64,000 bases of DNA from Escherichia coli 042 (GTDB lineage Bacteria; Pseudomonadota; Gammaproteobacteria; Enterobacterales; Enterobacteriaceae), in the NCBI RefSeq assembly GCF_000027125.1, contig NC_017626.1; one strand, given 5' to 3'. How positions within the stretch are numbered: position 1 is the first letter of the stretch; each line of letters begins with the position of its first letter. This document shows, in pieces, positions 6,325 through 12,698 of this stretch. Below the pieces are notes generated by a model. That model did not search any database. It was not told where the DNA came from and saw nothing but the letters and a program-made list of their open reading frames with translations. The translations under genes and the position numbers were made by a program.

Positions 6325-9300
6325 ATGACAGAACAACAAAAATTGACCTTTACGGCCTTGCAGCAGCGGCTGGATTCGCTGATGCTGCGCGACAGACAGC
6401 GTTTTTCTCGCCGTCTGCACGGCGTGAAGAAGGTTAAAAATCCTGATGCACAACAGGCCATTTTCCAGGAGATGGCGAAAGAGATTGACCATGCGGCAGG
6501 GAAAGTCCTGCTGCGTGAAGCGGCACGACCGGAAATCACTTATCCGGACAATTTGCCGGTTAGTCAGAAAAAGCAGGACATTCTCGAAGCAATTCGTGAT
6601 CACCAGGTAGTGATCGTCGCCGGGGAAACGGGTTCCGGTAAAACGACTCAGCTACCGAAAATCTGTATGGAGCTGGGCCGCGGGATTAAAGGGCTGATCG
6701 GCCATACCCAGCCGCGTCGTCTGGCGGCGCGAACGGTGGCGAACCGTATTGCGGAAGAGCTGAAAACGGAGCCGGGCGGTTGCATCGGTTACAAAGTGCG
6801 TTTCAGCGATCACGTAAGTGATAACACGATGGTCAAGCTGATGACCGACGGTATCCTGCTGGCGGAGATCCAGCAAGACCGCCTGCTGATGCAGTACGAC
6901 ACCATCATTATTGACGAAGCGCACGAACGCAGCCTGAATATCGATTTTCTGCTCGGCTATTTGAAAGAGTTGCTGCCGCGGCGTCCTGACCTAAAAATCA
7001 TTATCACTTCCGCGACTATCGACCCGGAACGCTTTTCGCGCCACTTTAATAATGCGCCGATTATCGAAGTCTCCGGTCGGACCTATCCGGTGGAAGTGCG
7101 CTATCGCCCGATTGTTGAAGAAGCCGATGATACCGAGCGCGATCAGTTGCAGGCGATTTTTGACGCTGTAGACGAACTGAGCCAGGAAAGCCCTGGCGAC
7201 ATTCTGATCTTTATGAGTGGTGAGCGGGAAATTCGCGATACCGCCGATGCGCTGAACAAGCTGAACTTACGCCATACCGAAATCTTGCCGCTTTATGCGC
7301 GGCTTTCGAACAGCGAACAGAACCGCGTGTTCCAGTCGCACAGTGGACGGCGCATTGTGCTGGCGACCAACGTCGCGGAAACCTCGCTGACCGTACCGGG
7401 GATTAAATACGTTATCGACCCAGGTACGGCGCGTATCAGCCGCTACAGCTATCGCACTAAAGTGCAGCGTTTGCCGATTGAGCCGATTTCTCAGGCGTCT
7501 GCCAACCAGCGTAAAGGCCGCTGTGGTCGTGTGTCAGAAGGGATCTGTATTCGTCTCTATTCGGAAGATGATTTCCTGTCGCGCCCGGAGTTTACCGATC
7601 CGGAGATTCTGCGTACCAACCTGGCCTCGGTTATTTTACAGATGACCGCGTTGGGGCTGGGTGATATCGCCGCGTTCCCATTTGTCGAAGCGCCGGATAA
7701 ACGTAATATCCAGGATGGCGTGCGTCTGCTCGAAGAGCTGGGCGCGATCACCACTGATGAACAGGCCAGCGCCTATAAACTGACGCCGCTCGGTCGCCAG
7801 CTTTCGCAATTGCCTGTCGATCCTCGTCTGGCGCGTATGGTGCTGGAAGCGCAAAAACATGGCTGCGTGCGTGAGGCGATGATTATCACGTCCGCGCTCT
7901 CCATCCAGGATCCGCGCGAACGACCGATGGACAAACAGCAGGCATCGGACGAAAAACATCGTCGCTTCCACGACAAAGAATCCGACTTCCTCGCGTTTGT
8001 AAATCTGTGGAATTATCTTGGCGAGCAGCAAAAGGCGCTTTCTTCCAACGCCTTCCGTCGCCTGTGTCGTACCGATTATCTCAACTATCTGCGCGTGCGC
8101 GAATGGCAGGATATCTACACCCAGTTGCGCCAGGTAGTAAAAGAACTTGGCATTCCAGTTAACAGCGAACCGGCGGAGTATCGCGAAATTCACATCGCCT
8201 TACTGACCGGTTTGCTTTCCCATATCGGCATGAAAGATGCCGATAAACAAGAATATACCGGCGCACGTAACGCGCGTTTTTCCATCTTTCCCGGTTCTGG
8301 TTTATTCAAAAAGCCGCCGAAATGGGTAATGGTGGCGGAACTGGTAGAAACCAGCCGCCTGTGGGGGCGCATTGCGGCACGCATCGATCCAGAATGGGTG
8401 GAGCCAGTTGCTCAGCATTTAATTAAACGCACCTACAGCGAACCACACTGGGAACGGGCGCAGGGCGCGGTGATGGCAACGGAAAAAGTCACCGTTTACG
8501 GGTTGCCGATTGTTGCCGCGCGTAAGGTCAACTACAGCCAGATCGATCCGGCGTTATGTCGTGAACTCTTTATTCGCCACGCGCTGGTGGAAGGTGACTG
8601 GCAGACACGTCATGCATTCTTCCGTGAAAACCTGAAACTGCGGGCTGAAGTGGAAGAACTGGAACACAAAACACGTCGCCGCGATATTCTGGTGGATGAC
8701 GAAACGCTGTTTGAGTTTTATGACCAGCGCATCAGCCACGATGTGATCTCTGCACGTCACTTCGACAGCTGGTGGAAAAAAGTCAGCCGCGAAACGCCTG
8801 ATTTGCTCAACTTTGAAAAGAGCATGTTGATCAAAGAAGGGGCGGAAAAGATCAGCAAGCTGGATTACCCGAACTTCTGGCATCAGGGCAATCTCAAACT
8901 GCGTTTGAGCTATCAGTTTGAGCCGGGGGCAGATGCTGACGGTGTGACTGTGCATATCCCGCTGCCGTTACTTAACCAGGTTGAGGAGAGCGGGTTTGAG
9001 TGGCAGATCCCCGGTCTGCGCCGCGAACTGGTGATTGCTCTGATTAAATCGTTGCCGAAACCAGTACGCCGTAATTTTGTGCCCGCGCCAAACTACGCCG
9101 AAGCTTTTTTAGGCCGCGTCACACCGCTGGAATTGCCGTTGCTCGACAGCCTTGAACGAGAGCTGCGGCGGATGACTGGCGTCACCGTTGACCGCGAAGA
9201 CTGGCACTGGGATCAGGTGCCCGATCACCTGAAAATCACCTTCCGCGTGGTGGATGACAAAAACAAGAAGCTAAAAGAAGGGCGCTCATTACAGGATCTG

Positions 9301-10227
9301 AAAGATGCTCTGAAAGGCAAAGTGCAGGAAACGCTGTCTGCGGTGGCGGATGACGGTATCGAGCAGAGCGGCTTACATATCTGGAGTTTTGGGCAACTGC
9401 CGGAAAGCTACGAACAGAAGCGTGGCAACTACAAAGTGAAGGCGTGGCCAGCGTTGGTGGATGAGCGCGACAGCGTGGCGATCAAACTGTTTGATAACCC
9501 GCTGGAACAAAAGCAGGCAATGTGGAACGGTCTTCGCCGTTTACTGCTGCTGAATATTCCGTCGCCAATCAAATATTTGCATGAGAAGTTGCCAAACAAA
9601 GCCAAACTTGGGCTGTACTTTAACCCGTATGGCAAAGTGCTGGAGCTGATAGACGACTGTATCTCCTGCGGTGTGGATCAACTGATCGACGCCAATGGTG
9701 GCCCGGTCTGGACGGAAGAAGGCTTTGCTGCGCTGCATGAAAAAGTCCGCGCTGAACTGAACGACACGGTGGTGGATATTGCGAAGCAGGTCGAGCAAAT
9801 CCTTACGGCAGTGTTCAATATCAACAAACGCCTGAAAGGGCGGGTGGATATGACCATGGCGCTGGGGCTTTCTGACATTAAAGCGCAGATGGGCGGGCTG
9901 GTGTATCGCGGTTTTGTCACTGGCAACGGTTTTAAACGGCTGGGCGACACGCTGCGTTATTTGCAGGCGATTGAAAAACGACTGGAAAAACTGGCGGTTG
10001 ATCCGCATCGCGACCGTGCTCAGATGCTGAAAGTCGAAAATGTCCAGCAGGCGTGGCAGCAGTGGATCAACAAACTGCCGCCTGCACGTCGTGAGGATGA
10101 AGACGTGAAAGAGATCCGTTGGATGATAGAAGAGTTGCGCGTCAGCTACTTCGCTCAACAACTTGGTACGCCTTATCCGATTTCGGATAAGCGTATTTTG
10201 CAGGCGATGGAGCAGATTAGCGGTTAA
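6325..10227 (+). CDS. hrpA: ATP-dependent RNA helicase HrpA (DEAH-box)
   Basis: 1300-aa ORF with Walker A GETGSGKTTQ, DEAH box and helicase C-terminal motifs. Confidence 0.96.
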   Translation: MTEQQKLTFTALQQRLDSLMLRDRQRFSRRLHGVKKVKNPDAQQAIFQEMAKEIDHAAGKVLLREAARPEITYPDNLPVSQKKQDILEAIRDHQVVIVAGETGSGKTTQLPKICMELGRGIKGLIGHTQPRRLAARTVANRIAEELKTEPGGCIGYKVRFSDHVSDNTMVKLMTDGILLAEIQQDRLLMQYDTIIIDEAHERSLNIDFLLGYLKELLPRRPDLKIIITSATIDPERFSRHFNNAPIIEVSGRTYPVEVRYRPIVEEADDTERDQLQAIFDAVDELSQESPGDILIFMSGEREIRDTADALNKLNLRHTEILPLYARLSNSEQNRVFQSHSGRRIVLATNVAETSLTVPGIKYVIDPGTARISRYSYRTKVQRLPIEPISQASANQRKGRCGRVSEGICIRLYSEDDFLSRPEFTDPEILRTNLASVILQMTALGLGDIAAFPFVEAPDKRNIQDGVRLLEELGAITTDEQASAYKLTPLGRQLSQLPVDPRLARMVLEAQKHGCVREAMIITSALSIQDPRERPMDKQQASDEKHRRFHDKESDFLAFVNLWNYLGEQQKALSSNAFRRLCRTDYLNYLRVREWQDIYTQLRQVVKELGIPVNSEPAEYREIHIALLTGLLSHIGMKDADKQEYTGARNARFSIFPGSGLFKKPPKWVMVAELVETSRLWGRIAARIDPEWVEPVAQHLIKRTYSEPHWERAQGAVMATEKVTVYGLPIVAARKVNYSQIDPALCRELFIRHALVEGDWQTRHAFFRENLKLRAEVEELEHKTRRRDILVDDETLFEFYDQRISHDVISARHFDSWWKKVSRETPDLLNFEKSMLIKEGAEKISKLDYPNFWHQGNLKLRLSYQFEPGADADGVTVHIPLPLLNQVEESGFEWQIPGLRRELVIALIKSLPKPVRRNFVPAPNYAEAFLGRVTPLELPLLDSLERELRRMTGVTVDREDWHWDQVPDHLKITFRVVDDKNKKLKEGRSLQDLKDALKGKVQETLSAVADDGIEQSGLHIWSFGQLPESYEQKRGNYKVKAWPALVDERDSVAIKLFDNPLEQKQAMWNGLRRLLLLNIPSPIKYLHEKLPNKAKLGLYFNPYGKVLELIDDCISCGVDQLIDANGGPVWTEEGFAALHEKVRAELNDTVVDIAKQVEQILTAVFNINKRLKGRVDMTMALGLSDIKAQMGGLVYRGFVTGNGFKRLGDTLRYLQAIEKRLEKLAVDPHRDRAQMLKVENVQQAWQQWINKLPPARREDEDVKEIRWMIEELRVSYFAQQLGTPYPISDKRILQAMEQISG

Positions 10228-10253
10228 CCCTGCTATTTGCCTGATAAATCTCA

Positions 10254-10286
10254 AACCCGGTAAGCATTTAGCGCCGGGTTTTTTCT
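10254..10286 (+). terminator. Rho-independent terminator downstream of hrpA
   Basis: Inverted repeat aacccgg ... ccgggtt followed by a T-run (ttttttc). Confidence 0.6.
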
Positions 10287-10457
10287 TTATGAATTCTGAA
10301 AAATAGCAAGGGCGGTACTATTTTACATAAGTTACATTCATACTCTGCCCATGGTAAACAGGACGTATTGCAATGAGTAGGCATGATATTTTAATGAGAT
10401 CGTATTATGAGCGAATAATAGAGCTTGATTGCGTCGGTCAGGCTTTAATCTCTTTCT

Positions 10458-10850
10458 ATGAAAAACTTCCAGAGGAAATTTTATCAGAAAATAATGGATT
10501 GGATTAATAGTATGAAAAATGTAGACAATATTATCTGGCATGATGGTGTTTTAGTTGAAACAAGAATGGAATGTCACCACGCCGGGTATAATTTTATATT
10601 GACGACAGAACTTTATGTTGATGAATTTACAGCCGGAAGGGAACGAAAAAGATTCGAGTTTACAGGAGTGGAACATTTATCGCAGGTTATGGATATTGCT
10701 GAGCTTATAGATAACCAAAACGCAGGTAATATTAAAGATGCGACAATTGTTTATAAGGCAAAGAAGTATGAAATTTCACTTCATTTGTTTGGCGGTTTTT
10801 TAAGTTTTACATTTAAAACCATGCGAGTTGTTGACAATGAATTTGAGTAA
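10458..10850 (+). CDS. Hypothetical protein, islet ORF A (start uncertain)
   Basis: 130-codon ORF in an AT-rich block; alternative starts at 10494 and 10512; no recognisable motif; its stop overlaps ORF B. Confidence 0.45.
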   Translation: MKNFQRKFYQKIMDWINSMKNVDNIIWHDGVLVETRMECHHAGYNFILTTELYVDEFTAGRERKRFEFTGVEHLSQVMDIAELIDNQNAGNIKDATIVYKAKKYEISLHLFGGFLSFTFKTMRVVDNEFE

Positions 10851-11286
10851 TGCCAAATGCGACAAATTGTCTTTTTATGAAGAAAAAATCCGCTGGCGAA
10901 TGCGTCGGCAAATCTCGAATGCAGAGGCAATATTTTACGAGAATCAGGAAGAACACATTCAGCGCTTTTTAGGCAGATATACCTGTCGCAAACCGGTTCT
11001 TGTTTATTGGGAAAGTGAACAAAGATGGACATCTGTAAACGGTCTGGAAGTGATGAGTATGTTTGATGGGCATTGTCATCACATCTACCTTGATGATATC
11101 AATAAAAAAATACAAGCTGAATTACCTGAAGATAAAACATTAGGTTTCAAACGTCAATTGCAATTTTTCAGTTTAGGGGATGAGAAGATTAGAATATGGG
11201 TGCCACAGGGGGAATTATATTTCGCATTAATGAATGTATTGCAGATGTTCCCCCTGAAGAAAATGGTTAATGACTGGACAAGGTAA
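10828..11286 (+). CDS. Hypothetical protein, islet ORF B
   Basis: 152-codon ORF (alternative start 10837) overlapping the end of ORF A, suggesting translational coupling; AT-rich; no recognisable motif. Confidence 0.45.
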   Translation: MLTMNLSNAKCDKLSFYEEKIRWRMRRQISNAEAIFYENQEEHIQRFLGRYTCRKPVLVYWESEQRWTSVNGLEVMSMFDGHCHHIYLDDINKKIQAELPEDKTLGFKRQLQFFSLGDEKIRIWVPQGELYFALMNVLQMFPLKKMVNDWTR

Positions 11287-11404
11287 TTTCAAATCACAGT
11301 AATGTCCATCGATTATACATGGTACGTAAACAGACTCGCACCGTTTTTGCAGAAGGTTAATGTGTGTCTATTGAGTGCAGTCTCATATATGAAGGGGTAT
11401 TGAC

Positions 11405-11782
11405 ATGGATGAATGTTTTATAAATATCACTCCGACTTCATTGTCTTTTAAAAACGCCGATCTGTCAGATTTAAGCTATAAAAATGCCAGGCTTGAACTT
11501 ACCCTGATATGCCCGGCGATCAAGTCAGAAGTTAAGTTATCATTTGACTGGATACATTCATTTCGTGTTACTGACGAAGGTGATTTGTTAGGAATGTCAG
11601 GAATGCACGGTATTAACCAAACAGGTATCTATAGAGTAGTGAATTCCGCCTATTTTTCATGGTTTACTATGCAAAGTTGTGAAATTTATAAAAATAATGT
11701 GATCGAGCATTATGTCATTGCCACGTCAAATGATGTTATTGATGTTTTATCAACAGTTTCTCCGCAAATACAGTATGACTAA
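11405..11782 (+). CDS. Hypothetical protein, islet ORF C
   Basis: 125-codon ORF on the same strand, 118 bp downstream of ORF B; AT-rich; no recognisable motif. Confidence 0.4.
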   Translation: MDECFINITPTSLSFKNADLSDLSYKNARLELTLICPAIKSEVKLSFDWIHSFRVTDEGDLLGMSGMHGINQTGIYRVVNSAYFSWFTMQSCEIYKNNVIEHYVIATSNDVIDVLSTVSPQIQYD

Positions 11783-11897
11783 AACCAGTGTCTGGTTCGC
11801 GATGGCGAGGTAGAAAAAGCATCATCTTCCTTTCAGAGTGCTCCGCTTCTCATTATTATCTCACGCAGTATTCTTAAGGAAACGATAAGGAGGAACC

Positions 11898-12698
11898 ATG
11901 AACATTACCCCGTTTCCGACGCTTTCGCCGGCAACCATAGATGCCATAAATGTTATCGGTCAGTGGCTGGCGTAGGATGATTTCTCCGGTGAGATGCCGT
12001 ATCAGGCCGATTGCGTGATCCTTGCAGGCAATGCGGTTATGCCAACTATCGATGCGGCATGCAAGATTGCCCGCGATCAGCAAATTCCTCTACTGATTAG
12101 TGGTGGTATCGGTCACTCGACAACTTTTTTGTATAGTGCCATCGCACAGCATCCGCACTACAACACTATCCGCACCACTGGCAGAGCAGAAGCTACCATC
12201 CTGGCGGATATCGCTCATCAGTACTGGCACATTCCGCATGAAAAAATCTGGATTGAAGACCAGTCAACAAACTGCGGTGAAAACGCACGCTTTAGCATCT
12301 CGCTATTGAATCAGGCCGTAGAACGAGTTCATACGGCTATCGTTGTTCAGGACCCCACAATGCAGCGGCGCACGATGGCGACGTTCCGCCGTATGACTGG
12401 GGACAATCCCGATGCACCACGCTGGTTAAGTTATCCCGGATTCGTTCCTCAGCTAGGAAACAACGCAGACAGTGTAATCTTTGTTAATCCGTTGCAAGGA
12501 TTATGGCCGGTTGAGCGTTATCTCTCACTACTCACTGGCGAGCTGCCACGTTTACGCGATGATAGCGATGGCTACGGTCCACGCGGGCGAGATTTTATCG
12601 TTCACGTTGATTTTCCGGCAGAAGTCATCCAGGCATGGCAAACGCTGAAACACGATGCGGTGCTCATCGAGGCGATGGAAAGTCGCTCGTTACGTTAA
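11898..12698 (+). pseudogene. ydcF: ydcF (DUF218 family) carrying an in-frame amber codon at codon 26
   Basis: Strong SD (aaggagg) plus ATG at 11898; frame reads MNITPFPTLSPATIDAINVIGQWLA, then TAG at 11973..11975, then continues in the same frame; next ATG at 11994 gives the 234-codon ORF. The two parts total 266 codons, the length remembered for K-12 YdcF. Confidence 0.6.

Follow-up and report, generated by a model that had tools for sequence, protein, structure and literature searches.

The AT-rich block that separates hrpA from ydcF in the window (the whole 64,000-nucleotide stretch of Escherichia coli 042 DNA analysed here) is best read as an islet of orphan immunity genes directed against contact-delivered polymorphic toxins (CDI CdiA-CT and Rhs-CT), an assignment drawn from comparisons of sequence to which we give a probability of roughly 0.7. 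The assignment follows from the surroundings of related genes in other genomes, since relatives of one islet gene, ORF C, sit at the CdiI position and relatives of a second, ORF B, are found in an Rhs array and in a fusion with a CdiI_3 domain. On the best reading, the islet is old, decaying and Escherichia-wide, and as accessory islets go it is fairly ordinary and of a kind already known.

The block between hrpA and ydcF

The left neighbor of the islet, hrpA (6325-10227), is followed by a terminator-like hairpin on the plus strand (10254-10285, read from the sequence as AACCCGG...CCGGGTT and then a T-run). This hairpin is part of the backbone common to K-12 and lies inside the K-12-homologous left flank, just to the left of the islet. 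Alignment against the 271-bp hrpA-ydcF spacer of K-12 MG1655 places the homology with K-12 at 10128-10301 on the left and from 11825 onward on the right, and the blastn edges directly delimit an accessory islet of 1523 bp (10302-11824, 36.4% GC) that stands in place of 128 bp of the K-12 spacer. MG1655 therefore lacks the islet, a point on which the initial annotation of this DNA had been unsure. The markedly low GC content that the same annotation had noted is borne out, with 35-38% GC over 10250-11900 against about 52% in the flanks (53.6% in hrpA and 51.4% in ydcF).

The islet contains three genes on the same strand (ORFs A, B and C) and a fragment of a fourth (gene 1). The three co-directional ORFs of 130, 152 and 125 codons that had been described earlier are present at those lengths as maximal ORFs (10458-10850, 10828-11286 and 11405-11782), and for the gene starts we adopted the calls in the RefSeq genome of strain GF60, which is 99.9% identical and in which the products are 112, 149 and 125 aa long. 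All on the plus strand, the genes are thus ORF A (10512-10850), encoding an acidic (pI 5.3), predicted beta-rich protein; ORF B (10837-11286), whose product combines an N-terminal helix with a PH-like beta-sandwich; and ORF C (11405-11782), encoding an acidic protein (pI 4.7) and preceded by a Shine-Dalgarno-like sequence, GAAGGGG. When the block was simulated 2000 times under a first-order Markov model, the ORF third in length always fell short of 112 codons, indicating that three ORFs of such length did not arise by chance. ORFs A and B overlap by 14 nt, as first noted, and the operon proposed for them is plausible because the overlap is also kept in the E. albertii-type locus described below. 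None of the three proteins has a transmembrane segment (the maximal Kyte-Doolittle mean over a 19-residue window stays below 1.0), which agrees with the earlier description.

The fourth gene, which the initial annotation had missed, is a pseudogene fragment on the plus strand (10373-10477) that retains the first 35 codons and is called by PGAP as an incomplete CDS in GF60. Its intact form in O157:H7 (L002:1646-2071) encodes a 141-aa helical protein, and alignment against this intact gene shows that a deletion of about 290 bp cuts it in the window. A tblastn search with gene 1 against plasmids gave no match.

We further note a nonsense codon in the backbone gene on the right flank, also missed before. 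In translation, ydcF (11898-12698, plus strand) has an in-frame TAG at codon 26 (11973-11975, between QWLA and DDFS), where K-12 and O157 have Gln. The gene is intact in GF60 and in K-12, and the TAG reflects either a nonsense mutation confined to this strain or an error in sequencing. A restart at Met33 (11994) is possible and would give a predicted product of 234 aa.

Small ORFs are the sole content of the islet. It has no integrase, transposase or IS, and no direct repeats were found to flank it, so that these hallmarks of an integrative mobile island are absent. An Rfam scan of 10000-12100 returned no match, and a scan of the islet for promoters and terminators did no better than on shuffled sequence. 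The four islet proteins had no significant match in Pfam, NCBIfam, PADLOC or PHROGs, PDB sequences were matched neither by single sequences nor by profiles, and no toxin, antitoxin-type or defence-system feature was seen in the islet. Because no curated family or PDB entry is matched, the identities of the genes rest on the genomic context of their homologues; the absence of a match to any curated immunity family counts against the immunity reading. Known anti-phage defence systems were considered separately and rejected, as the PADLOC-DB models recovered zero families at E≤1 with the four islet proteins.

Relatives of the islet genes beside CDI and Rhs toxins

ORF C has the clearest context. 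Its 55 homologues come from Escherichia, Erwinia, Pantoea, Duffyella, Citrobacter, Cedecea, Ewingella and other genera, and in five taxa or more, those at 39-46% identity occupy the CdiI position or form part of orphan CDI/Rhs immunity arrays. In Duffyella gerundensis (L005-L008), a gap of 7 bp separates the homologue P0023 (46% identical to ORF C) from the preceding stop codon, that of a CdiA with Fil_haemagg_2 and PT-VENN domains. This placement recurs in three contexts, both chromosomal and on a plasmid or ICE, and a chromosomal one has cdiA at full length. The homologue in Cedecea neteri falls inside a long orphan cdiA-CT/cdiI array, and a frameshifted remnant of that same C-terminal toxin region comes before it (96% and 75% identity). 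Another homologue belongs to an Rhs orphan array (L016:5259-5645), one is separated by 4 nt from a CdiI_3 gene that itself lies downstream of a CdiA of 2851 aa, and others adjoin 'immunity 42' and MafI genes on Cronobacter plasmids. Homologues of ORF C are thus found directly downstream of the toxin-encoding 3' end of cdiA, the position that defines a CdiI.

The toxin partnered with ORF C relatives is a CdiA C-terminal domain of about 90 aa ending in ...GRPTLEIQSGKNRIKFRYDE, of which the entry/linker region, and no other part, resembles known CdiA tRNases. Searches of Pfam, NCBIfam and the PDB with this domain and with the one linked to the ORF B family matched nothing outside the linker and entry region that they share with CdiA. 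Both are C-terminal domains of about 90-100 aa of uncharacterised CdiA/Rhs types (L007:7680-7994 for the ORF C family and L019:2-412 for the ORF B family).

These placements make ORF C most likely an immunity protein of the CdiI type. It is an orphan copy, because its neighbors are hrpA and ydcF and the DNA upstream of it contains no remnant of a toxin. No remnant of a cognate toxin is present in the Escherichia islets, and DNA resembling the ORF C-linked toxin domain was undetected in complete E. coli genomes. Immunity tends to be highly specific, indeed allele-specific, and ORF C is only 39-46% identical to its toxin-linked homologues, which counts against the immunity reading. ORF C matches none of the curated CdiI and Imm families searched (CdiI_2, CdiI_3, CdiI_N, CDI_Immunity_Comp and Imm of Pfam, and those of NCBIfam) and, even by profile, no PDB sequence.

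Beside the CdiA-CT/CdiI modules there is also a gene of the SymE_toxin family on the opposite strand, both in Duffyella (L005, L006 and L007, each at 8434-8766) and at a further CDI locus (L034:2114-2317). This suggests that SymE-like type I toxins recur with CDI loci.

The second line of evidence comes from ORF B. The AF2 model of this protein has high confidence (pLDDT 91.6, pTM 0.85) and consists of a long N-terminal helix, a PH-like sandwich and a C-terminal helix. Its fold matches are PH-like and YokE-like, at a sequence identity of only 11-20%. A word-indexed search recovered ORF B homologues from Escherichia only, and an exhaustive HMMER search recovered 85 cluster representatives at E≤1e-3, which form an unnamed single-domain family of about 140 aa; tblastn against plasmids gave no match. 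One of these relatives, P0079 (42-43% identical to ORF B), starts at the stop codon of a toxin module with the CdiA-type linker NPNVGKDLTDEEKNELGG. P0079 sits in Rhs orphan arrays (L016-L019, where L016 is LR134154.1), in an array that also holds the ORF C homologue mentioned above, and its paired toxin module, of about 100 aa, differs from the toxin linked to ORF C. In another relative, P0080, an ORF B-like domain is fused to a CdiI_3 domain, a direct association with a known immunity domain.

The two other relatives with visible neighbors, P0086 and P0090, stand alone among housekeeping genes, P0088 lies on a contig too short for its surroundings to be read, and the link between ORF B and toxins is consequently drawn from one array and one fusion. 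We infer that ORF B is an immunity protein of the CDI/Rhs type, on evidence that is good but thinner than that for ORF C. A PH-like fold in such a protein, as modelled, would be a mildly novel detail; a search for literature linking YokE-type PH domains to immunity found nothing. A different arrangement, which we consider unlikely, is that ORFs A and B represent two undescribed immunity families, with B as a PH-fold class acting against the toxin module of about 100 aa and the pair working as a two-component immunity unit, or else that they form a defence or regulatory module unrelated to immunity.

ORF A is the most restricted member of the islet. A pattern scan of 100,044 species genomes confined its family to Escherichia, and its AF2 model has low confidence (pLDDT 58.7) with a beta-beta-beta-alpha-beta-beta pattern, for which the fold matches were uninformative. 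ORF A shows no similarity to ORF C. The lack of homologues outside Escherichia and of any toxin-linked context counts against the immunity reading for this gene, and the suggestion that ORF A may be a third immunity protein is a guess.

The arrangement of ORFs A and B invites the question of whether A could be an orphan toxin C-terminal domain and B its immunity protein, forming a displaced module or an addiction pair akin to a toxin-antitoxin system. ORF A is placed relative to ORF B exactly as the toxin C-terminal domain is placed relative to P0079, and stop and start overlap to a similar extent (by 14 nt in the window); the overlap of A and B is conserved in E. albertii-type contigs. However, hhalign found ORF A dissimilar to the toxin linked to P0079 (probability 0.3%), ORF A matches no toxin family, no VENN or Rhs-core sequence lies upstream of it, and it has its own conserved start codon. 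Moreover, an intact ORF A homologue under purifying selection occurs without ORF B at locus L012, and ORF A is therefore unlikely to be an active toxin curbed by ORF B. Taken as a whole, we regard a toxin-immunity relationship between A and B as improbable. A type II toxin-antitoxin module made up of the same two genes was also considered and rejected, as TA domains are lacking, ORF A occurs without ORF B and relatives of ORF B occur alone.

Distribution, age and decay of the islet

A direct census of 5426 complete E. coli genomes, in which the islet was scored as present when at least 80% covered, found it between hrpA and ydcF in 586, or about one E. coli genome in nine (~11%). The initial annotation had allowed that the same genes might turn up in K-12 and all E. 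coli, and these counts speak otherwise. The K-12-type 128-bp segment occupies the site in 4625 genomes. The intact four-gene form is found in 335 of the 586 carriers, which are mostly labelled O157:H7, and all of these copies are at least 99% identical. The accessions of the four O157:H7 proteins are WP_000086434.1, WP_000799861.1, WP_001102905.1 and WP_000344419.1.

A further 186 genomes carry an alternative cargo on the opposite strand of the same site, made up of genes for an SMI1/KNR4 protein and a 99-aa hypothetical protein together with a remnant of the 3' end of ORF C. In UPEC69 (L003:2604-3394), for example, the gene for a 164-aa SMI1/KNR4-family protein overlaps that for the 99-aa hypothetical protein. 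The SMI1/KNR4 superfamily is an immunity family, and its presence as the other cargo suggests that the hrpA-ydcF site gathers immunity genes and acts as a small hotspot of gain and decay. One genome with this type of cargo also has an IS1 insertion between hrpA and ydcF.

The islet is also found outside E. coli. E. albertii-type contigs have the order hrpA, a DUF7021/DUF2262 gene, A, B, C and ydcF, with an A protein of 115 aa, a B protein of 148 aa (60% identical) and a C protein of 125 aa (73% identical). Other Escherichia species, too, have the trio between hrpA and ydcF; it is therefore old at this locus, was probably ancestral to the genus there, and has probably since been lost or replaced repeatedly, lineage by lineage. 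In these contigs (L013:4146-5003 and L024:4667-5524), a 285-aa DUF7021/DUF2262 protein or a 171-aa protein with DUF7021 only takes the place of gene 1; a literature search on DUF2262 found nothing. As for the K-12 allele, about 105 bp of its spacer (L004:2571-2698) have no detectable similarity to any islet variant, which means that cleanly excising the islet would not by itself produce this 'empty' allele.

Nei-Gojobori estimates of dN/dS are 0.16-0.24 for ORF A, 0.35-0.63 for ORF B and 0.14-0.30 for ORF C. The dS between the window and the E. albertii-type islet is 0.66-1.26, and the adjacent ydcF has a dS of 1.03 between O157 and the E. albertii-type contigs. A, B and C are protein-coding genes under purifying selection.

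Decayed versions of the locus are seen in other Escherichia contigs. In some E. albertii-type contigs, A is truncated and B is frameshifted while C is intact; E. whittamii keeps remnants of A and B with an intact C; and at L012, A is the one intact gene and C survives as a remnant. Such decay, together with the truncation of gene 1 in the window, weighs against the immunity reading and would fit a functionless remnant of an ancient CDI/Rhs orphan array whose ORFs are open but inert. Other facts that would suit such a remnant are that E. whittamii, L012 and UPEC69 have only remnants left, that 85% of E. coli genomes are without the islet, and that a cognate toxin is undetected in E. coli. Against it stand the dN/dS values well below 1 in all three genes across a dS of about 1, the maintenance between species of open frames and of the A/B overlap, and the retention of all four genes at 99% identity or more in the O157:H7 lineage. 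We consider an inert remnant rather unlikely, and retain the reading of the block as an islet of orphan immunity genes.

Proposed function and comparison with known systems

If this reading is correct, each of the small cytoplasmic proteins would capture and inactivate a single toxin domain delivered by a rival cell, so that the cell would be guarded without encoding the toxin, a 'herd-independent' form of protection. ORF C would act as a CdiI-type protein, its relatives being paired with the CdiA-CT domain of about 90 aa, and ORF B would represent a further immunity family, PH-like in fold, whose partner in another setting is the different toxin module of about 100 aa; ORF A would be translationally coupled to ORF B. 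The location and limits of the islet, its spread among genomes, the selection on its genes, the contexts of their homologues and the fold of ORF B are documented here; that the genes are expressed, that their products neutralise toxins and which toxins these counter in E. coli is what we infer.

The initial annotation had offered three options for the block, namely orphan immunity genes, toxin-antitoxin modules and compact anti-phage systems. The first has gained support from the CDI and Rhs contexts of ORF B and ORF C relatives, and the other two have fared poorly, with no PADLOC, Pfam or NCBIfam match and with ORF A occurring without ORF B. A compact anti-phage system or some other new stand-alone function, with the immunity-like contexts being coincidental, would be consistent with an AT-rich accessory block in a variable hotspot, with the often solitary relatives of ORF B and with the fact that none of the families is characterised. 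Yet no PADLOC model matches, no enzymatic or nucleic-acid-binding domain is present in any islet protein, and relatives of B and C recur specifically in CDI/Rhs toxin-immunity arrays, and we hold such a function to be highly improbable.

Were the orphan-immunity reading to hold, some 11% of E. coli, with practically all of the sampled O157:H7 lineage among them, would have an unannotated shield against contact-dependent toxins for which they lack genes of their own, and this would bear on the question of which competitors can oust the carriers in the gut. Two families without a Pfam or NCBIfam model would also gain names and contexts, one as a CdiI family with an uncharacterised CdiA-CT and the other as a PH-like, immunity-associated family. 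No new principle is opened by the islet, because orphan immunity islets and arrays have already been described, and a search for literature on an islet between hrpA and ydcF found no paper.

The proteins of the islet can be set beside two known groups. SMI1/KNR4 (SUKH) proteins share the site, being the cargo between hrpA and ydcF in the 186 E. coli genomes, but have no sequence or fold relationship to ORFs A-C, of which ORF B is PH-like. The YokE-like bacterial PH-domain proteins resemble ORF B in fold only, at 11-20% identity and with no Pfam match. We know of no function for these YokE-like proteins.

Two published gene arrangements are closer in kind. Orphan cdiA-CT/cdiI modules downstream of CDI loci are well known (Poole et al., 2011, PMC3150448; reviewed in PMC9086364). 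Relatives of ORF C reside in such arrays and directly after cdiA, whereas the genes in the window are detached, with neither a cdiBAI locus in the vicinity nor a piece of cdiA-CT upstream. Among published systems, the nearest counterpart is the orphan T6SS/CDI immunity islet at the yegQ locus of S. Typhi, which comprises 14 genes and whose function was inferred from context (Barretto and Fowler, 2020, PMC7400221). It differs in locus, in genus and in size (14 genes compared with three to four here), no sequence relationship between the two islets was seen, and the hrpA-ydcF islet is without Rhs or PAAR fragments. Like the yegQ islet, however, the hrpA-ydcF islet is an AT-rich accessory block at a fixed site that is mostly empty and holds other alleles in some strains, most of its genes encode no conserved domain, their homologues are found in CDI and T6SS-Rhs clusters, and the host, as judged from complete E. 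coli genomes, is without the cognate toxins.
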